Positions 47,849-64,000 of a stretch of DNA of 64,000 bases are shown one piece after another. Positions within the stretch are counted from its first letter, which is position 1. Every line of letters starts with the position of its first letter. Position numbers and translations under genes: made by a program. The notes beneath the pieces were generated by a model, which searched no databases, was not told the origin of the DNA, and saw only the letters and a list, made by a program, of their open reading frames with translations. Location of the stretch: the NCBI GenBank assembly GCA_963815215.1, contig CAWFFU010000003.1, positions 1,147,767-1,211,766 of the forward strand, given 5' to 3'. Origin of the DNA: an uncultured Trueperaceae bacterium (GTDB lineage Bacteria; Deinococcota; Deinococci; Deinococcales; Trueperaceae).

Positions 47849-48776
47849 GGGTCCGCGCCAACTCCTCCGCCTTGATGGCGATGTTCTCGGACGTCAACCC
47901 GAAGTGCTCGAACAGGAACTCTGGCTCCCCCGTCGGCGCAAACTCGCCAGGCACGCCGACCATCCGCATGGGGACCGGCGCCTCCTGCACGACGACCTCC
48001 GCAACGGCGCTGCCCAGGCCACCGAAGACCGTGTGCTCTTCGGCCGTGACGATGCCTCCGGTCTCCTTGGCGGCAGCCACGATCGCCTCACGATCGATGG
48101 GGCGGACGGTCGCCATGTTGAGCACGCGGGCCTCGATGCCACGGCCGGCAAGCCGGTCGGCCGCTTCGAGAGCCTTGTGCGCCATGACCCCATTGGCGAT
48201 GAGGGTAACGTCAGTGCCATCTCGGAGCACGGCAGCCTTGCCGATCTCGAAGCGGTAACCCGGTCCGTGCACCTCAGGAACGCCCATCCGGCTGATCCGA
48301 AGGAAGATCGGGCCTTGGAACTCGGCCGCAGCCCTCACCGCCTGCCGTGTCTCCTCGGGATCCGCCGGAGCCACCACGACGAGGTTCGCGATGGCGCGCA
48401 GCCACGCGAAGTCTTCGATGGAGTGGTGCGTCGGCCCCAACGCACCGTAGGCCATACCGCTGCTCATACCCACCAGCTTCACGTTGGCGTTCGAGTAGGC
48501 GACGTCGGCCTTGATCTGTTCGAGGGCGCGGCCCGTGAGGAAACAGGACGCCGAGGACACGAAGGGGACCAAGCCGGCATTGGCGAGGCCCGCTCCCGTA
48601 CCGACCAGCGTCTGCTCCGCGATGCCGACATTGAACATCCGGTCAGGGAAGGCGCTGCGGAACTCGCCAAGCTTGCTCGACCCGATGGAGTCGTTGGCCA
48701 CCGCCACGATGTCCTCGCGTTCTTTCGCCAGGGCCTCGAGGCTCTCCGCGAAGGCCAGTCGGCAGTCATGCAACAT
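47841..48776 (-). CDS. Split transketolase C-terminal subunit (apulose-4-phosphate transketolase-like)
   Basis: DCR, NDSIGSS, VGIAEQ, RALEQIKAD, YGALGPTHHSIED. Confidence 0.88.
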   Translation of the reverse strand: MLHDCRLAFAESLEALAKEREDIVAVANDSIGSSKLGEFRSAFPDRMFNVGIAEQTLVGTGAGLANAGLVPFVSSASCFLTGRALEQIKADVAYSNANVKLVGMSSGMAYGALGPTHHSIEDFAWLRAIANLVVVAPADPEETRQAVRAAAEFQGPIFLRISRMGVPEVHGPGYRFEIGKAAVLRDGTDVTLIANGVMAHKALEAADRLAGRGIEARVLNMATVRPIDREAIVAAAKETGGIVTAEEHTVFGGLGSAVAEVVVQEAPVPMRMVGVPGEFAPTGEPEFLFEHFGLTSENIAIKAEELARTHA

Positions 48777-49629
48777 GCGAATCCCGCCGTTCCGTCAATT
48801 CCTGGATGGCCCTCGCGAGCTCCTCATCGCTGGGAACTCGATGGTGCCAGCCGGCCTGATCCTCCATGAAGGACACGCCGCGACCCTTGTGCGTGTGCGC
48901 GATGATAGCGGTAGGCCTACCGGCCGTCACAGGCATCTCACCGAGTAAGGAGGCCAGGGCCTCGATGTCGTGTCCGTCGACCTCTCTTACGGTCCAGCCG
49001 AAGGCCGTGAACTTGTCGGCCAGGGGCTCCAAGCCCACGGTGTTGGCAACCGAATCCCCTTGCTGGAACCGGTTGCGGTCGACGATCAAGGTCAGGTTGT
49101 CGAGCCCATGGTGTGCTGCGTTCATCGCCGCTTCCCAGTTGCTCCCCTCCTGCAGTTCGCCGTCGCCGGTGAGGACGAACGTCCGCCAGTCCTTCTTGCG
49201 TAGTCTCGCGCCCAGGGCCATGCCCAACGCCACGGGCAACCCGTGCCCGAGCGGGCCTGTGTTCGTCTCGACGCCAGGCACCTTCTTGCGATCCGGATGT
49301 CCGTTCAGACGCGACAACGGCTGCATGTAGCTCGCGAGTTCGTCCGTGGGGAAGAAGCCCGCATGCGCGAGGGTCGTGTAGAGCGCACCCGAGCAGTGCC
49401 CCTTGCTCATGACGAAGCGGTCGCGATCAGGGTTGGTGGGATTCGCGGGATCGATATCCAAGACGCGGAAGTACAGCACCGTGAGGATGTCCATCGCCGA
49501 CATGTCGCCTCCGGTGTGCCCCAGTCCGGCCCCGTGGATCATCTGGAGGTCGCGGATCCGGAGGTCGTAGGCCAACCTCCGCAATCCTTCCGTAGACAGC
49601 GTTCCCTGAACGTCCGTGACCCTGCTCAT
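48766..49629 (-). CDS. Split transketolase N-terminal subunit (apulose-4-phosphate transketolase-like)
   Basis: GHTGGDMS, DRFVMSKGH, LNGHP, GPLGHG, GDGELQEGSNWE, WHHRVP. Confidence 0.9.
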   Translation of the reverse strand: MSRVTDVQGTLSTEGLRRLAYDLRIRDLQMIHGAGLGHTGGDMSAMDILTVLYFRVLDIDPANPTNPDRDRFVMSKGHCSGALYTTLAHAGFFPTDELASYMQPLSRLNGHPDRKKVPGVETNTGPLGHGLPVALGMALGARLRKKDWRTFVLTGDGELQEGSNWEAAMNAAHHGLDNLTLIVDRNRFQQGDSVANTVGLEPLADKFTAFGWTVREVDGHDIEALASLLGEMPVTAGRPTAIIAHTHKGRGVSFMEDQAGWHHRVPSDEELARAIQELTERRDSHVA

Positions 49630-50633: not shown

Positions 50634-50711
50634 GACGACATCCCTTCAATCAGCCCAGGACAGCCTTCGCACGAAGGCGCCATGACGGCTCGAAGTGCTC
50701 CCAATCTCAAT

Positions 50712-50792
50712 GGCAGAATATATATTCTGCCCCTATGCCTTTATTCCGCCGGAACAATAGCGCTGGTCCTGCCCCGTGTCAAGGGGCAGGAC
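50712..50792 (-). promoter_or_regulatory. Apiose-operon promoter with two palindromes
   Basis: Minus strand TTGACA (50782-50777), 17 bp, TATTGT (50759-50754); perfect 20-bp palindrome GGCAGAATATATATTCTGCC (50712-50731); 10-bp inverted repeat 50766-50792 around the -35. Confidence 0.75.
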
Positions 50793-50911: not shown

Positions 50912-51754
50912 TCAGTCAGGAACGTAGTTGAAGTCATCTGGATGGGGACCCGTGCGGCCGGGCTCGCCACGATCCAACCCGCTCAACGCGTCCATCGCTT
51001 CACCGTCGAGCTCGAAGTCGAAGAGCGCGAAATTCTCGCGCATCCGTGACGGCGTCACGGTCTTGGGAAACACCACGTCCCCGCGCTGGATGTGCCAACG
51101 GAGCACGACCTGCGCAGGCGTCCGACCGACCAGCTCAGCGATGCCACGAACCGTCGGATCTCCCAACACCTCCCCCTGCGCGATGGGCGACCAGGCTTCC
51201 GTCACGATGCCGTGCTCCCGCCCGTACGCCCTGACCTCATCGTTGACGAAGTACGGATGGACCTCGATCTGGTTCACCGACGGCACCGTGTCTGCCTCCA
51301 GAGCCAGCCGATCGAGATGCGCGACCTGGAAGTTCGACACACCGATGGACCGTGCGCGCCCATCGCGCTTGAACTCCTCCAGGGTGCGCCACGTGGAAAC
51401 GAAGTCACCCTCATAGAGACCCGGAAGCGGCCAATGGATGAGGAAGAGGTCCACGTAGTCGAAGCCGAGGTCACTGAGCGTCTTCTCGAACGCGCGCCGA
51501 GCATCATCGGGACGATGGAACCCGTTGTTCAGCTTGGTCGTCACAAAGACGTCACCCCGCGACACATCGGAGGCGCGGATCGCTTCGCCGACCTCCCGCT
51601 CGTTCCCATACATCTCGGCGGTATCGAAATGACGGTAGCCAACCTCCAAGGCCCGCAACACAGCGCGGGTCGTCTCGGGAGCGGGGATCTGGAACACCCC
51701 GAGGCCCAGCTGTGGAATCGTGTAGCCGTCATTCAGTTCGATCGCTGGAATCAT
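50912..51754 (-). CDS. Aldo/keto reductase (2,5-DKG reductase/DkgA-like)
   Basis: IPQLGLGVFQ, DTAEMYGNE, VTTKL, LIHWP, IGVSNF, AWSPI, FPKT. Confidence 0.93.
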   Translation of the reverse strand: MIPAIELNDGYTIPQLGLGVFQIPAPETTRAVLRALEVGYRHFDTAEMYGNEREVGEAIRASDVSRGDVFVTTKLNNGFHRPDDARRAFEKTLSDLGFDYVDLFLIHWPLPGLYEGDFVSTWRTLEEFKRDGRARSIGVSNFQVAHLDRLALEADTVPSVNQIEVHPYFVNDEVRAYGREHGIVTEAWSPIAQGEVLGDPTVRGIAELVGRTPAQVVLRWHIQRGDVVFPKTVTPSRMRENFALFDFELDGEAMDALSGLDRGEPGRTGPHPDDFNYVPD

Positions 51755-52051
51755 GTCACTCCCCCTTCTATCGCGCTCGCCGTACACTCCGTCCACCCAA
51801 GGCGGTCACTTCCGTGCTCGCGGTCACTCAGAGCACACTCGGAGCCAGGCTCACGTGCACCGACGAACCACCCTTCAGGAACATCGATCGGTCGGCGCCC
51901 AACCACTGCGAGCCTGTTCGTGGAGCTCCAAGCGCGAGCGGTACGTACGGCCGCAGAGTAACCTGTAGTCCCGTCTTGATTCGACCTGGCGTCCCTTGCA
52001 CACTCATTGGCGTAAGTCGGCCTTCGACAGCAGACCCGCCCCGAGCAGGGC

Positions 52052-52078
52052 TGAACCGTACCGGGTTCGGTGGGGGCT
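52052..52078. mobile_element. Orphan IS3-family-like terminal inverted repeat
   Basis: TGAACCGTACCGGGTTCGGTGGGGGCT resembles TGAACCGCnCCGGGTT..GTGGAG ends of IS3-family elements; no transposase attached. Confidence 0.45.
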
Positions 52079-52182
52079 ACGTTCTCACGGGAACGGGCAA
52101 CCAAGCCTGGGCACCGAACGACCAAGCCGCGCCAGAGCGCTGACCTCACCGCCGGCCATACAACGATTCACCTAGCCTCGAC

Positions 52183-52272
52183 CATCCGCCAAAGGATCGG
52201 CGCTCTACCAGCGGTGGCGCGAGAAGGCTAGGCTTCAGGTTCTACACAAGGTTCGTGCAACAGCTCTTCCGC
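52183..52272 (+). repeat. ~90-bp dispersed direct repeat, copy R1
   Basis: Aligns without gaps to 60741-60830 (59/90 identical by hand count); core CGCTCTACCAGCGGTGG. Confidence 0.75.
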
Positions 52273-52321
52273 GTGCGCTGCCACCTGGCCCCTGGAGCGC
52301 GCACCGGGTCACGGCCGCCAC

Positions 52322-52783
52322 CTATCGCTCGGCCGCGAGTTCGGCGGCGAGTTCGGCGTCGCTCGGGACGCTTCCGCGGGCGAGCGCCTCGACGAGCCGT
52401 CGACTCATGCGCTCGAGGCCGTCCCTCACCCACCGCCAGGCGTCGAGGTCCAGGCCGCTCGGATCGGGCACGCTCACGTGCCGACGCGTGGTGCGCGCCG
52501 GGTAGGCCGGGCATGCCTCGTTAGCGTCATCGCACACCGTGAGCACCACATCGAAGGCCCACGGAGTGGGGACCTCGAACAGCGTCTTGCTGGTATGGGC
52601 GCCGAGGTCGACACCGACCTCCGCCATCACGGTCACGGCGTCCTCCTTCACCCTGGTCTTCTCCGTGCCGGCCGACCACACCTCGAGCTCGAGCCCGGCC
52701 TCCCGGACGTGGTGGCGCAGCCACCCCTCCATCATCTGGCTGCGGGCGCTGTTGTGGGTGCAGAGCACCAGCAGGCGCCTCAC
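52322..52783 (-). CDS. arsC: Arsenate reductase, thioredoxin-type (LMW-PTP fold)
   Basis: [33 protein letters not shown]. Confidence 0.9.
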
Positions 52784-53904
52784 TCGCCCTCCCGCCGGGG
52801 AGCCGCGGCCGACCCCCGCGAAGGCCGAACCGAGGCGCCGACCGGGACGTCCGTGGGTCCGAACCAGCGCCGACGAAGCGCCAGCGCTACGTTGACCAGC
52901 CCGATCATCACCGGCACCTCGACGAGCGGGCCGATGACGGCCGTGAACGCCACCGCCGAGCCGATGCCGAATACCGCGATCGCCACTGCGATCGCCAGCT
53001 CGAAGTTGTTGCTGGCGGCTGTGAACGCCAGCGTGGTGGTCACGGCGCCATCGGCGCCGAAACGCCGGCCCATCCAGAAGCTGACCAGGAACATGATGAC
53101 GAAATACAGCACCAGCGGCAGGGCGATGCGCAGCACGTCCAGCGGGATGCTCAGGATGAGCCCGCCCTTGAGGCTGAACATCACGACGATGGTGAACAGC
53201 AGCGCGACCAGCGTGATGGGGCTGATCACGGGCAGGAAGCGCTCCTCGTACCAGGCGCGACCCTTCACGGGGATCAGCACCACGCGACTCAGCACGCCCA
53301 ATGCGAACGGCACCCCCAGGTACAGCAGCACCGCGCGCGCCACCTCACCCATGGAGATCGCCACGACATGCCCCTGCAGCCCGAGCCAGGTCGGGAGAAG
53401 GGTCGCGAACAGGTATGCGTAGACGCCGTAGAACAGGACTTGAAAGAGGCTGTTGAGGGCCACCAGCCCGGCCGCATACTCCCGGTCACCGCTCGCCAGG
53501 TCGTTCCACACGATCACCATGGCGATGCACCGCGCCACCCCGATCAGGATCAACCCCACCATGTACTCGGGCCGGTCACGCAGGAACAGCAGCGCCAGGC
53601 CGAACATCAGCAGCGGCCCGATGACCCAGTTCTGCACCAGGGACAGTGCCAGCACCCGGACGTTCCCGAACGCCCTGGGGAGCCGCTCGTAGCGCACCTT
53701 CGCCAGCGGCGGATACATCATCAGAATCAGCCCGATGGCGATGGGCACGTTGGTGGCGCCGACCTGCACGCGCTTCAACAGGTCCTCCACGCCGGGCACC
53801 AACGCGCCCAGCCCGATGCCCGCGGCCATGGCCGCGAAGATCCAGACGGTGAGGAAGCGGTCCCGAGCTGAGAGCCCGCTGGCCACAGCGGTTGGCTGGT
53901 TCAT
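52780..53904 (-). CDS. acr3: Acr3 family arsenite efflux permease
   Basis: [58 protein letters not shown]. Confidence 0.96.
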
Positions 53905-53986
53905 CGGCCCGTGTCTCCTGGAGTCGGCGCGTGCCCGGCGCGCACGTCCGTGCTTACGGTGGCCGGCGATGTCGCCGTCACATGGA

Positions 53987-54421
53987 TCAGCTCGCGGTCG
54001 CGGGCGAGCGCTCCCAACGCCCGCGGATGGGGAAGCTGCCGCCTCGCAACGAGCCGAGGACCGTGCTGTTCCGCTCGGCCAGGTCGATCAGGCGGGCGAT
54101 CCGATCGTCGGATGCGGGGCTGTCGACACGGAGCACGTAGTCGACCCCGGTGATGCTCGGGGGGCGGTCCTGCCGGGTGGCGGTAAGGTCCACGGAGGCG
54201 GCGCGCACGTCGACCTTGCTGGCCTCCGAGACCATCCCGAGACCCGTGAGCAGGCAGGTGCCGACGGCCGTGAGCAGTGTCTCGACGGCGTTCGGCCCGG
54301 CATCCGCGTCGCCCCGGTGGGCGCCCGTGTCCAGCGTGAACTGCCGGATGGTGGCACGCGCGTGCCGGCCGTCGGGACTCCGCTCGACGTGGGCCCCGTA
54401 GCGCTGACCCTCGGTCGGCAT
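53987..54421 (-). CDS. OsmC/Ohr family protein (single Cys)
   Basis: [19 protein letters not shown] in place of the usual resolving C-x-V. C-terminal part of ORF 53987..55687. Confidence 0.78.
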
Positions 54422-54426
54422 GTCGC

Positions 54427-54663
54427 TCACGGCCTGACCAGGATGCCTTCGAGTTGCTGTGGGGAGGGGACGCGGCCGGCCAGGACGACCTTCTCGTCGA
54501 TGACGAGGGCGGGTGTCGAGCTGACGCCGTAGGCGAGGATGTCGGCGTAGTCGGTGACCTTCTCGACGTCCGCCTGGATGCCTCTGGCCTCGAGGACGAG
54601 ACGGACGTTGGCTTCGAGGCGCTTGCAATTGGGGCAACCGGATCCGAGGACTTTGATGGTCAT
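54427..54663 (-). CDS. Small thioredoxin-like redox protein (MTH895/Thioredoxin_3 type)
   Basis: IKVLGSGCPNCK.LE, YGVSSTPALVID, GRVP. Confidence 0.92.
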   Translation of the reverse strand: MTIKVLGSGCPNCKRLEANVRLVLEARGIQADVEKVTDYADILAYGVSSTPALVIDEKVVLAGRVPSPQQLEGILVRP

Positions 54664-54711
54664 GCTGTGAGCCTCCTGCTCGTAGGATGGGCGGCGGCAC
54701 GCCGCGGAAGG

Positions 54712-55755
54712 TCAGAGTATGGCGTTGAAGAGGAAGCCGGTGGCGAGGATCCCCGTACCCACCACGGCCACGTAGACGGCGATGAGTCGCGGCTTGAGCA
54801 CGCGCCGCAGGATGATCATCTCGGGAAGGGACAGCGCGACGACCGCCATCATGAACGCGAGGGTGGTGCCCATGGCGAGCCCCTTGGCGTGGAGCGCTTC
54901 GACCAGCGGCAGGATGCCGGCGGCGTTGGAGTACAGCGGGATGCCCAGCAGCACGGCCACGGGTACGGCGAGTGGCTGGCCGGGGCCGGCGTAGCGCAGG
55001 AAGAAGCTCTGCGGCACCCAGCCGTGGATGGCGGCGCCCAGGCCGATGCCGACCAGCAGGTAGGGCCAGATCTTGCCGAGGATGGTCCTCACCTCTTCGA
55101 CGCCCATCTGCACGCGCTCTGGCCAGGTGAGCTGGCGGCTGGGGTCGAGGACCTGGCCTCCGAGGCGGGTCTCGAAGACGAACGGTTCGACCCACTTCTC
55201 CAAGCGGAGCCGACCCAGGATCATGCCGGCGACGATGGCCAGGATCAGGCCGCTGGCGAGGTAGAGCGCGGCGACGGTCCAGCCGAACATGCCGAAGAGC
55301 ATGACGAGGGCGATCTCGTTCACCATGGGGCTGGCGATCAGGAAGGACAGGGTGACGCCGAGCGGAACGCCGGCGGCGACGAAGCCGATGAAGGCGGGTA
55401 CGGCGCTGCACGAGCAGAAGGGCGTCACGACGCCGAGGCCGGCAGCCAGCGCGTTGCCGGCGCCCTCGCGCCGTCCGCCGAGCAGCGCGCGGGTGCGCTC
55501 GACGCTGAAGAAGCTGCGCAGCACGGTCACGAGGAAGATGATGCCCACCAGCAACAGCACGATCTTGACGCTGTCGAACAGGAAGAAATGCACGGCGTCG
55601 CCGAGGCGCGTGCCCGCCGGCAGGCCGAGGCCGCGGTAGACGAACCAGTCGAAGGCCGGTCCGTTGGCCGCGTAGAGCAACACCCACACCACGGCGGCCC
55701 CGGCCAGGGCAGCCGGGAGCGGCACGCCCCGACGCTGTGCCAGCCGCGCCCTCAT
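54712..55755 (-). CDS. arsP: ArsP/DUF318 family permease
   Basis: HFFLFD, TPFCSCSAVP, FLIASPMVN, GIPLYSNAAG, ALSLPEMIIL. Confidence 0.85.
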   Translation of the reverse strand: MRARLAQRRGVPLPAALAGAAVVWVLLYAANGPAFDWFVYRGLGLPAGTRLGDAVHFFLFDSVKIVLLLVGIIFLVTVLRSFFSVERTRALLGGRREGAGNALAAGLGVVTPFCSCSAVPAFIGFVAAGVPLGVTLSFLIASPMVNEIALVMLFGMFGWTVAALYLASGLILAIVAGMILGRLRLEKWVEPFVFETRLGGQVLDPSRQLTWPERVQMGVEEVRTILGKIWPYLLVGIGLGAAIHGWVPQSFFLRYAGPGQPLAVPVAVLLGIPLYSNAAGILPLVEALHAKGLAMGTTLAFMMAVVALSLPEMIILRRVLKPRLIAVYVAVVGTGILATGFLFNAIL

Positions 55756-56132
55756 CCTGCCACGCCCTCGTGGGCGCAGGCGTCCATGCAGGTCCCGAGG
55801 TCGAGCCCGAGCCGGGCCGGGTCGGGCGGAAGGGCCCCAGCCAAACGCCCGAGGGCCGCGGCGTTCAGGCTGTAGTCGATCCAGCGGCCGCGTCGTTCCC
55901 CCTCGATCAGGCCCGCCTCGCGCAGCACCTTGAGGTGGTGGGAGAGCAGGTTCGGCGCGATGTCGATGACCTCTTGGATCTCGCACACGCAGTGGGTTCC
56001 GTCGGTGAGGGTGGCGAGGATCCGCAAGCGGGTGGGGTCTCCGAGCGCCTTGAAGGCGCTCGCGAGGATTTCGGCGGTATCTCCGGGACCCGCTTCAACA
56101 AGAGTTGTTTCAACGGCTATTGATGCAACCAT
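55752..56132 (-). CDS. arsR: ArsR/SmtB family repressor
   Basis: FKALGDPTRLRIL, HCVCEI, LSHHLKVLREAGL, C-terminal CMDAC. Confidence 0.93.
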   Translation of the reverse strand: MVASIAVETTLVEAGPGDTAEILASAFKALGDPTRLRILATLTDGTHCVCEIQEVIDIAPNLLSHHLKVLREAGLIEGERRGRWIDYSLNAAALGRLAGALPPDPARLGLDLGTCMDACAHEGVAG

Positions 56133-56167
56133 GTTTGTAGCGTACTGCCGAGACCGGCGGCCGTCAA
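56094..56167 (-). promoter_or_regulatory. Leaderless ars promoter, with ArsR-type boxes inside the first codons
   Basis: TTGACG (56167-56162), 17 bp, TACGCT (56144-56139), 6 nt, ATG; TCAA-N6-TTGA at 56110-56123 and CAAC-N4-GTTG just downstream. Confidence 0.7.
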
Positions 56168-56299
56168 GAGGCTCGCTCCGGGACGCGAACGAGCTCGACG
56201 CCTTCGTGCTGGAGCTAGCGCTCGAAGGCTGCGCCGCGTATGGCGGGGAGGTTCACGAACCGAAGCCGCGGCTGCGCCGGTCCGTTGGCGCCACCGGCG

Positions 56300-57235
56300 T
56301 CATGTGCCGGCAACCTCGAGCCGCTCCGTGCTTCGCTCGAGTTGCGGAAGGAACGCCTCGGCAGCCGAGCGACCGATCGCGATGAGCCGCTCGAGTTGGT
56401 CGAAGTCGAAGATGCCGATCTCGGGCGGAACGGGAACGACGAGGCGGATGTCGGCCTCGTCGAACTCCTCCGTCTGGAGTTGGTGGGCGGTGATCGCGTT
56501 GGTACGGAGCAGGAGCCCGAGGCCGGTCCGGGGCATGACCGGCGCCAGCGGCGATGTGACGCTGACGGCCATCACGACGTCCGCCCCGAGCGAGCGGGTG
56601 ACGCGAACCGGCACGTTGCTGACGACGCCCCCATCGATGAGCCAACGGGATCCCCAGGGAACGGGCCTGAAGACGCCGGGCAAGGCGGCGCTGGCATGGA
56701 GGGCCCTGGCAAGGTTGCCCTCACGCAAAACCACGAGCTCGCCGGTCATCAGGTCGGCGGAAGTGGCCGCGAACGGCGTGGCGAGCTCCTCGATGGCGCG
56801 GTGCGCCGCGATGGCGTCGAGATGGCGCTCCAGGCGCGCGCCGGAATCCCGTCCCAGACCGAAGAGATCGTGCTCGAGGTAGCTTGCGGCCTCGACCAGG
56901 CCGGCGGCCCGCTGGCGGAACGAACCCGGCCGCCAGGGGTTGCCCGGAGCCTCCGAAAGGAGCTCGGCCAGGCGGGCGGGCGCATCCACGATTCCAGGGT
57001 CCGCCGCGTACAGACCCCCGACGATGGCGCCGATGGAGGCCCCTGCGATGACGTCGATGGCGACACCGGCTTCTTGGAGGACCTGGAGGACTCCCACGTG
57101 CGCGAGACCGCGCGCCCCACCACCACCCAGGGCGAGGCCCAGCCGATCCGACGGTCCGACGCTTCGCGTCTGGAAGCGTACCGGGGGCCGGAGGCCCCGA
57201 TCGACGCCCTCCCCGAGTGCCAGCTCTGCGCTCAT
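56300..57235 (-). CDS. Patatin-like phospholipase
   Basis: LGGGGARG, GASIG, ASAALPG, DGG. Confidence 0.93.
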   Translation of the reverse strand: MSAELALGEGVDRGLRPPVRFQTRSVGPSDRLGLALGGGGARGLAHVGVLQVLQEAGVAIDVIAGASIGAIVGGLYAADPGIVDAPARLAELLSEAPGNPWRPGSFRQRAAGLVEAASYLEHDLFGLGRDSGARLERHLDAIAAHRAIEELATPFAATSADLMTGELVVLREGNLARALHASAALPGVFRPVPWGSRWLIDGGVVSNVPVRVTRSLGADVVMAVSVTSPLAPVMPRTGLGLLLRTNAITAHQLQTEEFDEADIRLVVPVPPEIGIFDFDQLERLIAIGRSAAEAFLPQLERSTERLEVAGT

Positions 57236-57250
57236 GACGGCACCACCTCT

Positions 57251-57919
57251 CTAGCGGTCCGGGTCCGGCAGGATCACGGTCCGGGTGATGGCCGTGATCA
57301 GCCCGTCCGCGTCGACGTCGGGCCCGAAGAGCGCTTCGAACAGGACTGTGTCGAGGAAGGTCCGGGCGACGGCCTGCGCGATCTCGGGCTCGATCCTCGG
57401 GTCCACGGCTTCGCTCAGCGCATGCCCGAGGTCGGCGAAAGCGCGCTCGCGCGTCTCGTTCCAGTGCGCCCGCACCTGCTCGCGCTGAAGGATCTCCCGC
57501 ACCATGATGCGCAGCATCGGGGCCGAATGCCTCGCCATCGGGTAGATGCTGGTGCCCACCCGCCGCAGTAGCTCGTACGAGTCCGGCCGGGGATCGCTCG
57601 CGGCGATGTCGTCGATGGTCGCGCTCAACCGAGGAAACGCCGTGCGCTCATCGATGAGCGCCTCGAGCAGACCCTCCTTGGCGCCGAAGTAATGGAAGAT
57701 CAGCCCGGTCGCCACGCCCGCGGAATGCGCGATCCTGGCGATCGGGGTGCCGTCGAATCCGCGTTCGGCGAACAGCTCCATCGCCGCATCCAGGATGGCG
57801 GCGCGCGTCTCCGCTCCGCCTCCGGCTTCCTTCGGCCTCCGACCGAGCGGGCGCTTCCCGGACGCCGGGGCCTTACGGCGCGTCGCTGCCTCCGCCTCTT
57901 CTCCGCCACGCTTCACCAT
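57251..57919 (-). CDS. TetR/AcrR family regulator
   Basis: ILDAAMELFAERGFDGT..IA..AGVA.GLIFHYFG.KEGL. Confidence 0.93.
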   Translation of the reverse strand: MVKRGGEEAEAATRRKAPASGKRPLGRRPKEAGGGAETRAAILDAAMELFAERGFDGTPIARIAHSAGVATGLIFHYFGAKEGLLEALIDERTAFPRLSATIDDIAASDPRPDSYELLRRVGTSIYPMARHSAPMLRIMVREILQREQVRAHWNETRERAFADLGHALSEAVDPRIEPEIAQAVARTFLDTVLFEALFGPDVDADGLITAITRTVILPDPDR

Positions 57920-58094
57920 CGCCCCGCCCCGTTCAGGACGGTGTGCCCGTCGCGAGAGCCATCGCCCGAGCACGGAGCGAATCGGCTGGGGGTGCGCTCC
58001 TTGGAGCGCACCCCCAGACCCACCTTCGCCCCTCGTTCCGCTTCCCACGCAACGCGGACGCCGACGCCCAACCGCCACGACGTCGCGAACACGA

Positions 58095-58454
58095 TCATGC
58101 CGGCGCGGCGGTTCTCTTGGCGCCGCCGATGGCCGTCAGGGCCACGATCGCAGCAAGCGCAACGACCACACCGAGGATCCAGGCATTCCACGCCGCGGAG
58201 GCCACCCCCGCGAAACCGAGCAGCCACGGCGCGACGAACACCCACGCCGCCGAGATCACCAGCCACCACTGAGCGCCACGCGAACCGGGCACGGCCAGCG
58301 CCCACAACGCGAACGCCGTCACCGCCAACCCGAGGATCCAAGCGTTCCACGCGGCCGAAGAGCTGCCCGCGAAACCGATCAACCACGGCGACACGAACAG
58401 CCAGGCTCCCAGAATCAGGTTCGTCCAGTCTTGCCAGCGTGACCAAGCCTTCAT
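58095..58454 (-). CDS. SPW repeat membrane protein
   Basis: Two repeats: GAWLFVSPWLIGF..AAWNAWILG and AAWVFVAPWLLGF..AAWNAWILG. AAGGAGG RBS. Confidence 0.9.
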   Translation of the reverse strand: MKAWSRWQDWTNLILGAWLFVSPWLIGFAGSSSAAWNAWILGLAVTAFALWALAVPGSRGAQWWLVISAAWVFVAPWLLGFAGVASAAWNAWILGVVVALAAIVALTAIGGAKRTAAPA

Positions 58455-58480
58455 TGCGTACCTCCTTCGGCCAGCTATCT

Positions 58481-58526
58481 AACTGACCGGTCAATTCATA
58501 TTAGTCGTGGGCGGCCGTGCCGTCAA
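58481..58526 (-). promoter_or_regulatory. Promoter and TetR-type operator of the SPW-tetR-patatin operon
   Basis: TTGACG (58526-58521), 17 bp, TAATAT (58503-58498); palindrome AAcTGACCGGTCAaTT at 58481-58496. Confidence 0.75.
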
Positions 58527-59050
58527 GCCCCCCCGGGGGATATATCCCGGCCGTCCAGCCAATCCAGAGAACGTCCCTGGACGCTCCGTCGAACTGGCCG
58601 TATCATCCTGATCGTTCGGGACCGGCCGATGCCGGGCCGTAGGCCGGCGGTTCCGATGGGGTTTGAGCCCCCTCCCCAGTTGCGCGGTCCGCTTGCGAGC
58701 CACGCACAGCCGCAAGCGGAGGCCACCGCATGCCACAGAGGAGGTAGCTTGACCGGGGTTGCCGTCCACGAGAAGGTCCGGGTGGTCCTGCGACTGTCGC
58801 GAGGCCAGGGTCGGGGCCTTCATAGGAGGGATACGTGGAGCGCAAAGGCGCCGAAGGCCGCCCGTACCGCGGGGTCTCCTGGCTGCGACCGGAGCCGTGG
58901 GCCCAAGCGGCTTGCGACCACGCCAAGGCTCGCAGGGCGGGGGCGCGACCGACACAACCGAGGTCCTACATCCAGGCCCCGGGCCCGCGCCGTTGCGAAC
59001 CCATACCGTCCGTTCCACCCCCTTCACGAAGCTTCGAAGTGAGGTAGCCC

Positions 59051-59824
59051 ATGTTGGTTCCCTGGACCGTTGTGCTCATCGCCGCCGTGGTCGTCGGCTT
59101 CGTCACCTCTGCCCTGCGCATCTGGATCGACCGAGTCTTCTTCGTCATCATTCTGCTCACACTGGGCCACCTGCCGATCAGGGAGGCTATCGCCTTGAAC
59201 GTCCTGGTCTTGGTCCTCGCCTCGCTCTCCCACGGGCTCGTGCGCCGCGAAGGCTGGATCTGGGGGGAGTTCGGCCGCTTCCCGTCCTGGGAAGGCTGGG
59301 CGGCCGTCGTCGCGGGATTCGCGGGAGGAGTCCTGGGATGGGCATGGGGGCTTGGCCTCGCAGGCAAGGTCCTGCTCGGCGCGCTCGGCCTCTATGCCAT
59401 TGCGATGGCGATCCGCCTCGTAGTGGTGAAGCCGGGAAAGGGCCGGTCAAGCGCCGTGCACCCAGGCTGGATCCTGCCGATAGCCCTCGGTGCCGGTGCC
59501 CTCACCGGGCTACTATCGGCGGGCGGCAAGCCGTTCGCGGTGCCGCTCTACAACCGAGCTCTCGGCCACCATTGGCCGGTCGCCTACGCCATCGCTACCT
59601 TCGGTACCATCGGTGCCGCCATCGGCGCAGGCTTGACCGAACTCGCGCTGAACGGTTACAGCGTTCCCGCAGTGGAGACCGCCCTCGCTGCCTGGGCGGG
59701 CATCTCACTGTTCGCGTGGCTCACCGATCTGATCTGGAGCCCCAAGCTGATGAAGGCCACCACGCTCGCCGTGGCGGTCGTGCTCCTTGTGGTCGGCATT
59801 CGATTCAGTCTGGCCGCCTTCTAG
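59051..59824 (+). CDS. TauE/SafE-like membrane protein
   Basis: About 8 TM helices, AGALTGLLSAGG..AVP motif, GAGG RBS. Divergent family member. Confidence 0.65.
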   Translation: MLVPWTVVLIAAVVVGFVTSALRIWIDRVFFVIILLTLGHLPIREAIALNVLVLVLASLSHGLVRREGWIWGEFGRFPSWEGWAAVVAGFAGGVLGWAWGLGLAGKVLLGALGLYAIAMAIRLVVVKPGKGRSSAVHPGWILPIALGAGALTGLLSAGGKPFAVPLYNRALGHHWPVAYAIATFGTIGAAIGAGLTELALNGYSVPAVETALAAWAGISLFAWLTDLIWSPKLMKATTLAVAVVLLVVGIRFSLAAF

Positions 59825-59920
59825 GGTGCGGGCGGACGCCGGCGTCTCCGTGCCGATCGCCAAGTGACCCGCGAAGGAGGTGGCAATCGCGCGCCGCCTC
59901 GAAGGTCGGGGCCGGCCGCG

Positions 59921-60337
59921 TCAGGACTCCACGAACGGATTACGCACCAGCACGCCTTCGATCTCCCGACCGTCGTTCAGGTCCTCCGTGAGCAGCTCGT
60001 GGCAACCGCCGCGTTTAGCGGCGATCGCTATGGCAGCGTCCCAGAGCGCCAGGGGGGTCCGGCGGGCGAGGTCGATGGCCTCTTCGACCAGGCTCGCGTC
60101 GACCGCAACAACGTCGACCGCGCGGGCCAGCTCGCGCACCATGGCGTGGGCCTCGTCCGCAGGCAGGGGCGGCCGCAGCTTCCGGGTCGCCGTCCAGTAG
60201 AACTCCTCGAGCACCTGGGCGCTCACGACCAGATGCCGTGCCTCGCTCGCGAGAATGGCCAGAGCCGCCGCCCGCTTGCGCGGGTCGAAGGCGTCCACAG
60301 CGTACACGAGGACGCTGGTGTCTAGGAACGAGGCCAA
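59921..60337 (-). CDS. PIN-domain toxin (VapC-like)
   Basis: FLDTSVLVYA, SAQVLEEF, LWDAAI, LLTEDL, NPF. Confidence 0.92.
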   Translation of the reverse strand: MASFLDTSVLVYAVDAFDPRKRAAALAILASEARHLVVSAQVLEEFYWTATRKLRPPLPADEAHAMVRELARAVDVVAVDASLVEEAIDLARRTPLALWDAAIAIAAKRGGCHELLTEDLNDGREIEGVLVRNPFVES

Positions 60338-60576
60338 CGAACGCGCCCCTCGTACAGCTCCTCGCGCGTCCAGTCACGACCGCCCCCCTCGGCGCCGGCA
60401 ACGCTCGCGCGTGCGCGTTCGACGAAACGGCGGCGGGCCCCGCGCCGCTCCTCTTCAGAGGTGTAGCTTTCGAGGAACTCCCGCACGACCGCGTTCACCG
60501 TGGTGCCTCGCTCAAGCGCGCGGATGCGCGCCCGTCGCAACAAGTTCTCGTCGATGGAAAGCGTCACATTCGCCAC
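60322..60576 (-). CDS. RHH-type antitoxin (DUF6364-like)
   Basis: MANVTLSIDENLLRRAR..A..RGTTVNAVVREFLE...WTREELY; leaderless (TG-C-TACACT, 6 nt, GTG). Confidence 0.88.
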   Translation of the reverse strand: MANVTLSIDENLLRRARIRALERGTTVNAVVREFLESYTSEEERRGARRRFVERARASVAGAEGGGRDWTREELYEGRVRWPRS

Positions 60577-60740
60577 GGGTTCAGTGTAGCACGGGACCCG
60601 TGGCCAGCCGACCGACCGGGACCGACACGGACGTAATCGCGGGCCCATGACGGCCACCATTCGTGACGCCGCCTGGATACCCGCTGCTCGCGATCTGACT
60701 CGAGGCAACGTCCGGGGACACCACCGGGCGGCCCGTTGAC

Positions 60741-60830
60741 CATCTACCGAAGAATCATCGCTCTACCGGCGGTGGTGCCGAAGTCCTAGTTCTTACGTCT
60801 TATACGAGGTTTCTGTGACTATTCTTGCGC
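60741..60830 (+). repeat. ~90-bp dispersed direct repeat, copy R2
   Basis: CATCTACCGAAGAATCATCGCTCTACCGGCGGTGGTGCC...CTAGTTCTTACGT...TTCTTGCGC. Confidence 0.85.
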
Positions 60831-60934
60831 AGGTACCCTCTGTACGCCCACGACCACCGGATGAACCGTAACCGTTGCCGCGGCCTGATCACCGGAAGCC
60901 CGTCGAGGGTCGCGGCGCCATGCCATGCTGGCAC

Positions 60935-61219
60935 ATGCCACGATCCGAACACGCCGCGCCCTACGTCCTGCTCGAGCGGCTCCCGACCCCAGAGGAATAC
61001 CGGCGCCTCTGTGAGGCGGTCGGTTGGGGCCCAGTCATGAACTTCGAGGCGGCACCGACCTCGCTCGAGCGCTCCTTGTACAGTGTGGTCGCGTTCCCAG
61101 CCAACAGGGCTGATACGAAGTCTCATCAAAGGGCCGAACCCTGCATGCAGCCTCGGAACCCTCAACGACCGCACGCCGAGCCAGGTCTCGGGCCCGCAAC
61201 GCAACGTCCCAGCCACTGA
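60935..61219 (+). pseudogene. Truncated GNAT acetyltransferase-like gene
   Basis: LERLPTPEEYRRLCEAVGWG...SLERSLYSVVA is a typical GNAT N-terminus; resemblance is lost after about 61096 and no acetyl-CoA motif follows. Confidence 0.6.
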
Positions 61220-61270
61220 GATCCCCACACCCTAGGTGGATCAACCTCAAGGGCCGTGTCACATCCGTAT

Positions 61271-61360
61271 CCGCCGCCGAAAACGCATCGTTCTACCAGC
61301 GGTAGTGCCGCTTTGCTAATTCTTACGTTCTGGACGTGGGTTATGCGATGCTTCCTGCAC
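61271..61360 (+). repeat. ~90-bp dispersed direct repeat, copy R3
   Basis: GCCGAAAACGCATCGTTCTACCAGCGGTAGTGCC...CTAATTCTTACGT. Confidence 0.85.
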
Positions 61361-61400
61361 GGCAACGCTTGATCCCCCAAGGGTTGCAGACGGCAATGCC

Positions 61401-61436
61401 ATAACGTTCGACGTTATTAACGCGATGCGTTATCAT
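61401..61436 (+). promoter_or_regulatory. Tandem HigA-type operators overlapping the higBA -10
   Basis: ATAACGT-TCG-ACGTTAT (61401-61417), TAACGC-GAT-GCGTTA (61418-61432); TATCAT (61431-61436) 5 nt before the GTG. Confidence 0.8.
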
Positions 61437-61441
61437 CGGAC

Positions 61442-61723
61442 GTGATCAAGGGCTCCCGGGACGGCAACACCCAGCAAGTCTTCGAGCGGCGTCCCATCCG
61501 GCGCTGGCCGCAAGATCTGCAACGTCGCGCCCTCCGGAAACTCCTCATCCTCGACGCCGCCGAAACGCTCGCCGACCTCCGCGTTCCGCCCGGCAACCGA
61601 CTCGAGAAGCTCACCGGCGACAGGACCGGCGAACACGGCATCCGCATCAACGACCAGTGGCGTGTCTGCTTCCGGTGGAAGGGCGGCAACGCTCACGCCG
61701 TCGAGATCACCGACTACCACTAG
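61442..61723 (+). CDS. higB: HigB (RelE/ParE superfamily) toxin
   Basis: RKL..LDAA..L.DLRVPPGNRLEKL.GDR.G.H.IRINDQWRVCFRW...VEITDYH. Confidence 0.93.
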   Translation: MIKGSRDGNTQQVFERRPIRRWPQDLQRRALRKLLILDAAETLADLRVPPGNRLEKLTGDRTGEHGIRINDQWRVCFRWKGGNAHAVEITDYH

Positions 61724-61731
61724 GAGAAACC

Positions 61732-62037
61732 ATGAGTTCCGACGCAAGAACGAACGCACCCATCCACCCCGGCGAGATCCTCCTTGAGGAGTTCCTCGAG
61801 CCGATGCACGTCACGCAATACCGCCTGGCCAAGGACATCTCCGTGCCACCCCGGCGCATCAACGAGATCGTCCACGGCAAGCGGGCCATCACGGCCGACA
61901 CCGCCCTACGCCTAGCCCGCTACTTCGGCACCACCGAACGCTTCTGGCTCAACCTCCAGGCACGCTACGACCTCGAGATCGCCAAGGACCGGCTCGGAGA
62001 CAGACTCGAGCGAGAGGTCACCATCGCAGCGCGCTGA
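61732..62037 (+). CDS. higA: HigA antitoxin (XRE HTH)
   Basis: PIHPGEILLEEFL, RRINEIVHGKRAITADTALRLARYFGT..FWLNLQ. Confidence 0.95.
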   Translation: MSSDARTNAPIHPGEILLEEFLEPMHVTQYRLAKDISVPPRRINEIVHGKRAITADTALRLARYFGTTERFWLNLQARYDLEIAKDRLGDRLEREVTIAAR

Positions 62038-62089
62038 AGAACCTTCAACTAAGCGCCCCTGCGGACCACAGGCCCCCGGCACCCTAGAC

Positions 62090-62179
62090 CACCTGCCGAA
62101 GAATCATCGCCCTACCAGCGGTAGTGCCAATTGCCTAGTTTTTACGTGCAGCACAGCGTTATTGCGACCATTCTTTCGG
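62090..62179 (+). repeat. ~90-bp dispersed direct repeat, copy R4
   Basis: CACCTGCCGAAGAATCATCGCCCTACCAGCGGTAGTGCC...CTAGTTTTTACGT...TGCGACCATTCTTTCGG. Confidence 0.85.
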
Positions 62180-62540
62180 CTTTGGCATCGAACCGTCAAC
62201 TCCCAATGCAAACGCGCGAGCTCGCTCTTACGTGCGCCATCAACCGAACCACCACCCCACCGTCGCTCACGCAACGGCCGTTAACCCGTCGGCCGCCGAA
62301 CGAATGTGTCGCGGGTCCGAACCTCCTTGGCGGCCGAACGTTAGACTCGCGCCCTGAGCAGTCGAACCTGAACGGTACCGCCTGAACGGCCCTATCCGAG
62401 CGGCTCTACCTGCAAGGTCCTACACGTCGTGATCGCAGCCGTCTCGGGCAGGTACCGATGGGCAGCCTCTGGGGAAACGTCACAGAACCCTAGCGAGCGA
62501 GTCGATATCGAGCGGATGGCGCCACCTTCCGGAGGCAATC

Positions 62541-63860
62541 GTGAACCACCGTCGTCCCCTCATCGCCGCAGCGCTCACCCTGACCCTCCTCATCGCAGGC
62601 TGCAGCCAACAACCCACCCCGATACCGACCATCGCGTCGTTCTCATCGGGCGCAACGAACCTCAACACAACCGGTGCCTCCGTGACGCTCACCTGGAACG
62701 GCAACGCCGTCACCGACTACAGCCTCACCGTGAGCCCAGCCACCGGCGTGAAGGTCAACGGCACCGCCTACACGGGCGCCGTCGACCTCAAGACGGCCAC
62801 TACCGCAACCGTCACGCTGCCGAGCAACAGAACCAGTAGCACAAGCGCGGCCTACACCTTGACCCTGACGGCCACAGGCGGAACCGGCACCACCCCCACC
62901 ACCCAGACCACGAGCGTCACGGTGGCCCCCGGCGTCGTGGTGTACTCCGGCAGCAATTACGGCTTCAGCACCCCTGTCGCGGCGGTGGCGGACGCCAACG
63001 GCAACATCTGGATCACCAATTATACGGGGACCACTGTGACGGAGCTCCCAGCGGGCAAGTACACCAACCCCATCCAGTACTACGGTTTCCACACACCCAC
63101 CGGGGTAGCGGTGGACGCCAACGGCAACATCTGGATCACCAACCAAACCGGGGCCAGCGTGACGGAGCTCCCAGCAGGCAACTACCACAACGTCATCAAC
63201 TACTCCGGCAGCGGTTACGGCTTCCAGAACCCCTATGGGGTGGCGGTGGACGCCAACGGCAACATCTGGATCACCAACAAGGGCGGGGCCAGCGTGACGG
63301 AGCTCCCAGCAGGCAACTACCACAACCCCCACGTCTACTCAGGCGGAGGATACAGCTTCAGCTTTCCCGAGGGGGTGGCGGCGGACGCCAACGGCAACAT
63401 CTGGATCACCAACTTCAATGGGGGGAGCGTGACGGAACTTCCGGCAGGCAACTTCGCCAGCCCCCACGTCTACTCAGGCAGTAGCTACGGTTTCTACTAC
63501 CCCTCCGCAGTGGCGGCGGACGCCAACGGCAACATCTGGATCACTGATTACGGCGTGGCCGGCACCAACTATGGCGGAACCACCGTTACGGAGCTCCCAG
63601 CAGGCAACTACACGAACCCCCACATCTATACCGGCTTCAGCTCCCCCACGGCGGTGACGGCAGACGCCAACGGCAACATCTGGATTGCCAACGGCGGAGC
63701 GCCCAGCGTGACGGAGCTCCCAGCAGGCAACCCCACCAACCCCACCGCCTACGCCGGCAGCACCTACGGCTTCAACGGAGCCTATGGGGTGACGGTGGAC
63801 GCCAACGGCAACATCTGGATCACGGACAACGGCGGCGACAGCGTGACCGAGATCCGTTAA
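62541..63860 (+). CDS. Lipoprotein with Thr-rich Ig-like stalk and 7 NHL-like repeats (beta-propeller)
   Basis: GGAGG RBS, lipobox LIAGC, seven F..P.GVAVDANGNIWITN..G.SVTELPAGNY units. Confidence 0.88.
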   Translation: MNHRRPLIAAALTLTLLIAGCSQQPTPIPTIASFSSGATNLNTTGASVTLTWNGNAVTDYSLTVSPATGVKVNGTAYTGAVDLKTATTATVTLPSNRTSSTSAAYTLTLTATGGTGTTPTTQTTSVTVAPGVVVYSGSNYGFSTPVAAVADANGNIWITNYTGTTVTELPAGKYTNPIQYYGFHTPTGVAVDANGNIWITNQTGASVTELPAGNYHNVINYSGSGYGFQNPYGVAVDANGNIWITNKGGASVTELPAGNYHNPHVYSGGGYSFSFPEGVAADANGNIWITNFNGGSVTELPAGNFASPHVYSGSSYGFYYPSAVAADANGNIWITDYGVAGTNYGGTTVTELPAGNYTNPHIYTGFSSPTAVTADANGNIWIANGGAPSVTELPAGNPTNPTAYAGSTYGFNGAYGVTVDANGNIWITDNGGDSVTEIR

Positions 63861-63900
63861 CGGCCTAGCCAGCGACCGCCCCCCGCCCAAGTAGCCGGCG

Positions 63901-64000
63901 TGAGTTGACCCGTTTTGACGGACTGCACACCTGCGGCTAGTAGGCTGCGGGGGATGGAGTCTGTCATGGCTAGCAGATATTCGGAGGAGTTCAAGCGGGA
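63901..64000 (+). mobile_element. IS3-family element, left end and start of orfA (truncated by the window)
   Basis: Begins TGAGTTGACCCGTTTTGACGGAC (5'-TG end); GGAG RBS; ATG 63966 gives MASRYSEEFKR, typical of HTH_Tnp_1. Confidence 0.75.

Follow-up and report, generated by a model that had tools for sequence, protein, structure and literature searches.

The window analysed here is a stretch of 64,000 nucleotides (nt) from an uncultured Trueperaceae bacterium, covering positions 1147767-1211766 of contig C3 in the genome labelled G000 (assembly GCA_963815215.1), and its right edge coincides with the end of that contig. Towards this edge lie four plus-strand copies of a repeat, R1 to R4, at 52163-52277, 60722-60865, 61267-61386 and 62078-62215, which divide accessory genes into small modules; the repeat, the array it bounds and their probable origin are the subject of this report. 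A preliminary description of the window had proposed a co-oriented, intergenic 90-bp repeat, and the four copies are real: they align without gaps, share one orientation, fall between called genes and reach a mean column identity of 72% over 150-nt windows. A repeat finder returned a single family of four 97-nt copies, at 52175, 60733, 61263 and 62082, with 64-74% identity to the reference copy. The consensus given earlier was right, but the length was too short, and the start points, at which copies are indeed present, lie 8 nt inside the copies of the 97-nt family. An alignment of 35 copies sets the conserved unit at ~135-150 nt, from TTGACC to GTCAAC, and in some copies conservation extends ~100 nt more.

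A profile of the four copies was searched against the whole assembly (3,316,786 bases, 14 contigs). R1-R4 match far beyond chance, with E-values of 9e-29 to 2e-25, the latter belonging to R1, the most diverged copy, whose limits were taken from an nhmmer profile of 33 copies. Besides these, four further places appear at E<=10: two full copies on contig C8 (C8:1153 and C8:3224, E 1e-23 and 9e-22), both at the contig start and on the same strand, a partial match at C11:419121 (E 5e-4) and a weak one at C8:8300 (E 0.23). With a longer profile, the C11 match becomes one diverged, full-length, solitary copy, and no further copies are found in the genome. Six of the seven full-length copies in G000 thus belong to one co-oriented array made of the end of C3 and the start of C8, and the short motifs of the repeat are confined to this array, with none beside integrase genes or elsewhere. 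The preliminary description had named repetitive extragenic palindromes (REPs), miniature inverted-repeat transposable elements (MITEs) and the ends of an insertion sequence (IS) as competing identities. The genome scan with the four-copy model supports none of them: the copies are clustered rather than evenly scattered, and they stand at no IS end.

The full repeat has the structure P'-O-P. P' is a 27-nt block, TTGACCACCTGCCGAAGAATCATCGCC; O is a 17-nt core, CTACCAGCGGTAGTGCC; the P arm, of ~100 nt or more, contains CTAGTTTTTACGT, in which the 13-mer of P' returns as an inverted copy, and GTCAAC. Profile searches place the O core at 60763-60779 in R2 (with two mismatches), 61293-61309 in R3 and 62112-62128 in R4, and R1 has an O-like core at 52204-52220. 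In every copy, O is the end of a protein-coding gene, amn: it comprises the stop codon and the last five codons (..IRHYRW*), and when read on the amn strand its CTA is the stop codon and the adjoining 14 bases encode ..HYRW. As read from the sequence, O lies within a 19-bp near-palindrome, GCCCTACC-AGC-GGTAGTGC, that can be parsed as two 6-bp arms and a 7-bp centre (CCAGCGG). Two arms around a short centre form the geometry used by tyrosine recombinases, and by analogy the layout of O would suit an enzyme of this class. In copies displaced from the gene, where O is non-coding, O and P' retain a mean pairwise identity of 77%, against 59% for the P arm.

Two unusual copies illustrate the range of this anatomy. 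The solitary copy on C11 (C11:419099-419319, or ~2100-2320 of stretch L007) has P', an extended P arm and an O from which 3 nt are deleted, and stands far from amn, flanked by unrelated open reading frames (ORFs). In a related genome, stretch L051 (G007:C5) holds at 5870-5923 a degenerate displaced copy, in which P'-O is joined by ~60 nt more of the 3' coding region of amn; a longer part of the gene was therefore duplicated in at least one old junction.

The anchor gene lies in G000 at C8:8301-9176. It encodes a PNP_UDP_1 protein identified as short-form AMP nucleosidase (NF005500, 318 bits against a cut-off of 264), and it is full length and stop-free in G000, G003, G006, G019 and G049, all five array genomes in which it was found. 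The repeat clusters of relatives end in a half copy of ~45 nt, TTGACCACCTGCCGAAGAATCATCGCC followed by CTACCAGCGGTAGTGCC, that runs into a gene on the opposite strand. This P'-O half copy overlaps the end of amn in G003, G006, G005, G019, G049 and one metagenome contig; in the terminal copy of G000, other DNA, located after a partial group II intron reverse transcriptase and IS3 fragments, has taken the place of P'. O is present as ordinary amn coding sequence in 30 of 30 family loci examined, and P' follows it in 4 of the 29 loci with downstream sequence (G003, G006, G019 and G049), all from array-bearing genera. All repeats lie on one side of amn and bound modules that vary between genomes. 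Since every repeat carries the last codons of amn, the repeats are identified as attachment (att)-type junctions. The earlier proposal of a recombination site or accretion scar is supported, with the difference that its anchor, on the next contig, lay outside the earlier view.

The end of C3 likely joins the start of C8. On C8 (stretch L006), beyond the window, full repeats occur at 1142-1272 and 3220-3353 with an AbiEi/AbiEii module between them, followed by a LuxR fragment, an ABC-2 fragment, a leucine-rich repeat protein, IS3 fragments, the partial group II intron reverse transcriptase and then amn. A search of C8 with Rfam found only an IS3 ALIL frameshift element (L006:6125-6241) and no group II intron RNA. 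At the end of the window and contig, positions 63966-64000 hold the first codons of an ORF, MASRYSEEFKR.., which by eye looks like the start of an IS3-family OrfA and probably explains the assembly break.

Between R1 and R2, module 1a (52304-59844, genes on both strands) contains, by Pfam, an arsC-like gene (LMWPc/ArsC, 52322-52783), ACR3 (SBF/ACR3, 52780-53904), Thioredoxin_3 (54427-54663), an ArsP permease (ArsP_1, 54712-55986), ArsR (55752-56132), patatin (56300-57235), TetR (57251-58078) and SPW (58095-58454), all on the minus strand, and a plus-strand TauE gene (59051-59824). It is followed by module 1b (59887-60721, minus strand), a VapBC-type cassette with a PIN toxin at 59921-60337 and a partner at 60322-60708. 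Module 1b is preceded by a repeat in G003 and not in G000, and from the sequence the R1-R2 module is best described as composite, the repeat before its VapBC part being missing. Module 2 (60866-61266, ~400 bp) has no confirmed gene; its ORFs at 60875-61219 (plus strand) and 60800-61228 (minus strand) match neither Pfam nor NCBIfam families. Module 3 (61387-62077, plus strand) is a higBA operon with HigB at 61442-61723, an HTH_3 antitoxin at 61657-62037 (Pfam) and, in a promoter scan, its own promoter-like site at 61408-61436. Module 4 (62216-63900, plus strand) carries an NHL-repeat protein gene (62541-63860, Pfam) and is followed by the contig break. The 135-nt periodic direct repeat seen within that gene, at 62943-63878, is an ordinary feature that reflects the NHL propeller blades. 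Pfam confirms most of the gene content called earlier; the exceptions are a presumed GNAT remnant between R2 and R3, which has no Pfam match even at E<=10, and the VapB partner of the confirmed PIN toxin, which is a weak ribbon-helix-helix match only.

Two further features lie to the left of the array. An AT-rich perfect palindrome, GGCAGAATATATATTCTGCC, at 50708-50735, between a xylose-isomerase-like TIM-barrel gene and an aldo-keto reductase gene, may be an operator. Three colinear pairs of inverted repeats, 68-89 nt long and 71-72% complementary, connect 19532-20421 with 48183-49026 over a distance of ~28 kb, and their arrangement suggests diverged paralogous genes in opposite orientation.

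The distribution of the repeat was surveyed by blastn of R4 over 128 genomes of the family from 36 genera (one unpublished genome was included and gave no match). Repeats occur in 10 of these genomes and 3 of the genera, always as co-oriented clusters; besides G000, the carriers are seven of the nine other genomes of its genus, together with G019 and G049. An exact-pattern scan of species genomes returned four stretches, all within relatives otherwise found, and a pattern scan of metagenomes returned twelve, most of them 99% identical to contigs of the relatives, with only contig L112 being new. Altogether, 51 copies were collected in 17 stretches. Neighbouring copies are separated by a median of 2,195 bp (35 spacings; extremes 530 and 13,604 bp), and 24 of these spacings fall below 3 kb. 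Among the cargo are toxin-antitoxin and abortive-infection genes (VapBC, HigBA, MazEF, AbiE and RES pairs), genes for arsenic (ars) and copper (cop) resistance, lipoproteins, c-di-GMP enzymes of the GGDEF/EAL type, and ABC transporters accompanied by two-component systems. In 27 of 37 cases, the P'-side neighbour of a repeat shares its orientation, and on the P side the count is 18 to 16; the genomes being related and hence not independent, the bias is no more than indicative.

The same counts bear on the idea that the repeat is a cis-regulatory element, namely a common promoter, leader or small RNA upstream of accessory genes. R4 has two minus-strand promoter-like sites, TTGACG-18-AAGAAT and TTGGCA-16-GATGAT, its region holds three promoter-like sites against 0.2 in shuffles, and vapBC and abiE start just to the left of R2 and of repeat R6. 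Yet only 10 of the 37 P'-side neighbours point away from the repeat, which speaks against a minus-strand promoter as its main function, and Rfam 15 finds no family in the window at gathering score and nothing over the repeats at E<=10 (51500-63000). With no fold or covariation signal either, as described below, and with the copy of the amn end in every repeat left unexplained, a regulatory origin is very unlikely; a promoter could be a secondary property of the site.

Comparison of the modules between genomes reveals how the array varies. The higBA module (61400-62128) is 82% identical to G003 L044:12300-13011, where it adjoins amn, whereas in G000 it is internal, and the homology stops where O ends. 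The VapBC segment 59887-60798 is 90% identical to G003 L045:4880-3955, which has repeats on both sides; the 7.5-kb block from ars to TauE is 91% identical to G004 L049:15673-8118, also placed after a repeat; and G007 holds a module that shares 94% identity with the AbiE module lying between the two copies on C8. In contig L112, the order is repeat, AbiE module, P'-O, amn. In G006, where the same AbiE module is present (94% identical), P'-O-P and 12.9 kb of further modules stand between it and P'-O-amn, and the two sequences diverge exactly past GGTAGTGCC, which constitutes an insertion-deletion (indel) at O. Module boundaries in related genomes thus coincide with the repeats.

Single repeats may also be mosaic. 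Repeat R5 is 94% identical to one G003 copy on the left and 56% in P, and R4 is 69% identical to another G003 copy on the left and 96% in P, a value that its P arm also reaches with one G004 copy; as aligned, these mosaic repeats switch near O. Contigs from one metagenome run (X2) fuse the VapBC module to an R4-type repeat, skipping 1,448 and 1,247 bp. Over C8:1-798, identity to the beginning of a G003 contig is 98.6%, against ~89% for flanking housekeeping genes, which points to recent transfer.

The small modules, their wealth of toxin-antitoxin genes, the orientation bias of 27 in 37 and a set of nested inverted repeats (GAAGAATCATCGC with GCGACCATTCTTC, and TTGAC with GTCAA) might recall a strict integron, or a site that, like attC, recombines in folded single-stranded form. 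Folding tests do not bear this out. As single-stranded DNA, four copies fold no better than shuffles on either strand (z -1.97 to +1.05). Across 35 copies, pairing in five inverted-repeat helices reaches 78.5% of cells (shuffles, 78.0%), and the covariation score is 0.126 against 0.119, with 104 of 500 shuffles scoring as high. RNAalifold on sets of 6 and 33 copies yields weak, non-covarying stems only. A hairpin between the right-hand 13-mer and GTCAAC, covarying by eye, was discarded because it is paired in only 57.9% of cells. The anchor copy, moreover, shares ~45 nt with the repeats and not a 7-nt box, and no IntI is found, as detailed below, so that an integron in the strict sense is extremely unlikely. 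The inverted repeats are read here as conserved motifs, most simply protein-binding sites on duplex DNA.

A search for a recombinase within the arrays covered ORFs picked by codon-position GC content: 136 of 175 in twelve stretches from relatives (39 far outside the arrays were dropped), 24 of 33 in G049 and, in G000, 23 ORFs of the window plus 20 of C8. Apart from the IS3 fragments and the partial group II intron reverse transcriptase on C8 of G000, none of these ORFs within the modules matched a family of integrases, resolvases or transposases. In G006, G019 and G049, the arrays are contiguous from the flank to amn, and all three are without recombinase genes. None of about 50 modules bears a recombinase gene, and no cognate integrase stands beside an att site. 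Two candidates were set aside: an integrase 19 kb from amn in G071, where neither an amn-end repeat nor a profile match is present and hence no island of this kind, and recurrent unknown ORFs of the arrays considered as hidden recombinases, of which a 205-aa family proved to be a lipoprotein and the others secreted proteins or doubtful ORFs.

Elsewhere in G000, PF00589 matches five places, none near the array. The tyrosine-recombinase genes of G000 include an Xer-like one at C3:330609-331670 and three others at C11:199994-201232, C10:327854-328849 and C11:192349-193908. By blastp, one Xer-like group is common to G000, G004, G005, G006 and G019, that is, five of the six array genomes examined; no Xer-like member was recovered in G003, whose 349-aa PF00589 match was not assigned to any group. 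A second tyrosine-recombinase group occurs only in G005 and G006, and identity among the larger integrases of G000 and G003 does not exceed 34%. The preliminary description had placed the recombinase outside the window and asked whether the repeats accompany one recombinase family. No recombinase was found for the array, either inside the window or outside it; the Xer-like group has members in five of the six array genomes examined, no serine recombinase was found in the six, and none of the tyrosine recombinases lies near an array.

The Xer-like group, the only recombinase group in most array genomes (G000, G004, G005, G006 and G019), raises the possibility that the cassettes hijack the host dimer resolvase, as integrative mobile elements exploiting Xer (IMEX) and pdif modules do, which would explain the absent integrase. 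Such a site should resemble dif, and the motif ATAA-N6-TTATG does not occur in the whole G000 genome. The best dif-like candidate is a 30-bp AT-rich palindrome, AAAACCTGATAACTCGTCTTATCAGGGTTT (AAACCTGATAA-CTCGTC-TTATCAGGGTT), at G000:C3:330581 (L088 ~2582-2611), directly upstream of the Xer-like gene. Its position resembles the dif-next-to-xer layout of single-recombinase Xer systems, and its sequence is unlike the repeat. The available part of a paper on Deinococcus FtsK gives no Deinococcus dif sequence (PMC9764985). As the target is also a gene end and not dif, use of Xer by the cassettes is very unlikely. The repeat shows neither attC-like folding or covariation nor, inside it, a 28-30-bp dif-like site with two arms and a 6-8-bp centre.

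The reading that we favour, by a modest preference, is that small non-autonomous cassettes were integrated one after another, by site-specific recombination, at the 3' end of amn, leaving the repeats behind as att junctions, with the recombinase acting in trans. The circular cassette would carry P'-O-P as its attP, and recombination within O with the chromosomal end of amn would insert it. Each insertion would rebuild the end of amn and shift the older junctions outwards, yielding the order [P'-O-P]-cassette-[P'-O-P]-...-[P'-O]-amn. The observations on which this builds are the anatomy of the repeat, its clustering, its anchor, the variable content, the indels at O and the modules free of recombinase genes. 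From these we infer a crossover within O, insertion at the amn-proximal site and a trans-acting recombinase encoded elsewhere or on a helper element absent from the assemblies. As a target, amn has a parallel in Burkholderia, where it is a phage integration site according to one report (PMC5247547).

Several observations weigh against serial integration in trans. No recombinase is assignable to the array. The integron integrase model stays far below its cut-off (best TIGR02249 score 42.5 bits, against 265); G003, G004, G005, G006 and G019 have one or two tyrosine recombinases each by PF00589, none of them near the array; and PF00239 finds no serine recombinase in six of six genomes, with control genomes positive. 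Most of the genomes are fragmented metagenome bins, in which a helper element could be missed. R4 has no blastn match among phage and plasmid records, and a pattern scan of viral contigs for the repeat found none. A joint that goes back from 62159 to 59887 was seen in assembled contigs of two runs from two studies; it is ambiguous, since either a strain with a repeat before VapBC, as in G003, or a circle would produce it, and contigs cannot separate the two. Indels and mosaics are equally obtainable by RecA recombination between direct repeats of 45-150 nt. The G000 boundary between the TauE block and VapBC (59844-59887) is without a repeat, and the G003 higBA module has no detectable repeat on its left. 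Finally, the R4 P arm, for all its 96% identity to one copy each in G003 and G004, is followed from ~62221 on by DNA that differs from theirs.

A further detail, which can be taken either way, concerns P' itself. A subset of repeats, among them R1 and the terminal copies of G019 and G049, shows 100-130 extra conserved bases on the P' side, which on the minus strand read as the decayed start of a Rossmann-type gene (..VKRLITGGDAGF.. in G019). In the window, this degenerate 5' part, recognized by translation (VNRCMAGGEV...) and without a Pfam match, occupies 52084-52174 on the minus strand and abuts P' of R1; blastn of 52043-52231 finds homologues before a subset of repeats in relatives (L045, L053, L040 and L050). 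The Shine-Dalgarno-like AGGTGG inside P' precedes the start of this pseudogene, and from such sequence context P' may descend from the native spacer between amn and the adjacent gene. Target and cassette would then have a long block in common, which would make homologous recombination easier to imagine.

These points lead to the most serious rival, that the repeats are fossil att sites. In this account, one or a few ancient integrations would have been followed by loss of the integrase, and the 150-250-nt repeats would now serve as portable homology, with RecA-dependent unequal crossing-over, Campbell-type insertion of circles and natural transformation deleting, duplicating and exchanging modules. 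Such a history fits a shared recombinase complement limited to one Xer-like group in five of six array genomes with no serine recombinase, repeats that are long and up to 96% identical, a homology breakpoint inside the extended P arm rather than at O, a boundary devoid of a repeat, and a P' with AGGTGG and pseudogene start that may be native flank within one long homology block. Between genera, the AbiE cassette adjoining amn is 87% identical and amn itself ~86%, which fits vertical descent of at least that module. What it leaves unexplained is the presence of ~50 modules in 10 genomes, each with a non-host P arm on the same side, as well as the better conservation of O and P' (77%) than of P (59%) in non-coding copies. 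It also offers no source for new cargo arriving with new flanking repeat copies, and the 98.6% identity of the G000/G003 segment argues for recent transfer, though transformation could do likewise. We regard fossil sites as possible, and as less probable than continued integration in trans.

Among described systems, the tandem ssrA islands of Dehalococcoides are, by analogy, the closest case. These islands follow one another in tandem behind a single gene, and a 20-bp repeat of the gene's 3' end, together with a 15-bp motif, delimits each; 16 have a CcrB-like serine recombinase (DsiB) beside attL, and 15 are without an integration module and suggested to be cis-mobilizable (PMC3146451). So described, they resemble the amn array in their tandem placement behind one gene, in gene-end direct repeats with adjoining conserved bases and in their variable content. 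They differ from it in that none of the ~50 modules here has a recombinase and no serine recombinase was found in six genomes, and in that a protein gene, amn, is the target here, with a conserved unit of 135-250 nt and most modules measuring 0.5-3 kb.

Staphylococcal cassette chromosome (SCC) elements insert at the last bases of rlmH/orfX, are moved by CcrAB or CcrC serine recombinases and usually span tens of kilobases; they are bounded by gene-end direct repeats with neighbouring inverted repeats and form composite arrays that include ccr-less pseudo-SCC. Insertion at the end of a housekeeping gene, gene-end direct repeats and recombinase-less elements within an array are shared with the present case, whereas here no Ccr-type serine recombinase was found (PF00239, six genomes), the modules are small, and taxon and target are others. 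The cis-mobilizable elements (CIMEs) of streptococci are att-flanked, integrase-less tandem segments at a gene 3' end, thought to be mobilised in trans, and adjoin a resident integrative and conjugative element (ICE) or integrative and mobilizable element (IME) that supplies the integrase; no ICE or IME is found at or near amn in the contiguous arrays of G006, G019 and G049. Chromosomal integrons and clusters of attC sites lacking integrases (CALINs) consist of small, mostly co-oriented cassettes, rich in toxin-antitoxin genes, with one site each, no recombinase and presumed insertion at one end. The amn array differs from them in having no IntI, sites that are not attC and an anchor that is a gene 3' end instead of an attI beside intI. 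IMEX at dif and pdif modules are integrase-less as well, bounded by repeated recombination sites and dependent on the host recombinase, but the present repeat has no dif-like core and is unrelated to the candidate dif beside the Xer-like gene.

Calling the repeats an unrecognised class, as the preliminary description did, was too strong for the principle, because tandem att arrays at gene 3' ends are known, for instance from the ssrA islands cited above (PMC3146451), and fair for the site sequence and the total lack of integrase genes. No description of this system was found in the literature on amn islands, on integrons and islands of Deinococcota, or on integrase-less cassette arrays. The present case is set apart by its ~50 modules without any recombinase, their small size, the long conserved site, and a new taxon and target gene. 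To our knowledge, integrons are the only well-understood chromosomal site dedicated to collecting small recombinase-less cassettes, and SCC elements, ssrA islands and ICE/CIME accretion arrays always include recombinase-bearing elements.

In this family, three genera share an amn-anchored array with modules of ~0.5-13 kb and no recombinase plainly linked to it. A tentative and bolder interpretation, which we consider doubtful at present, is that this Deinococcales clade keeps a reserved site at the end of amn as a second, independent, integron-like gene-capture platform. The cassettes handled there would carry promoters, one to three genes and an attP-type site of 150-250 bp each, but no recombinase; their insertion, excision and exchange would fall to an enzyme that is neither IntI nor Ccr nor cassette-borne, and that would be either a host enzyme or a member of an unrecognised family. 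If a trans-acting enzyme exists, it would form a new pair with the site, and the array would be a new gene-capture platform; otherwise, old att sites would persist as portable homology that keeps the hotspot fluid. In either case, P'-O-P beside amn provides a marker for accessory genes in the metagenome bins of this clade.

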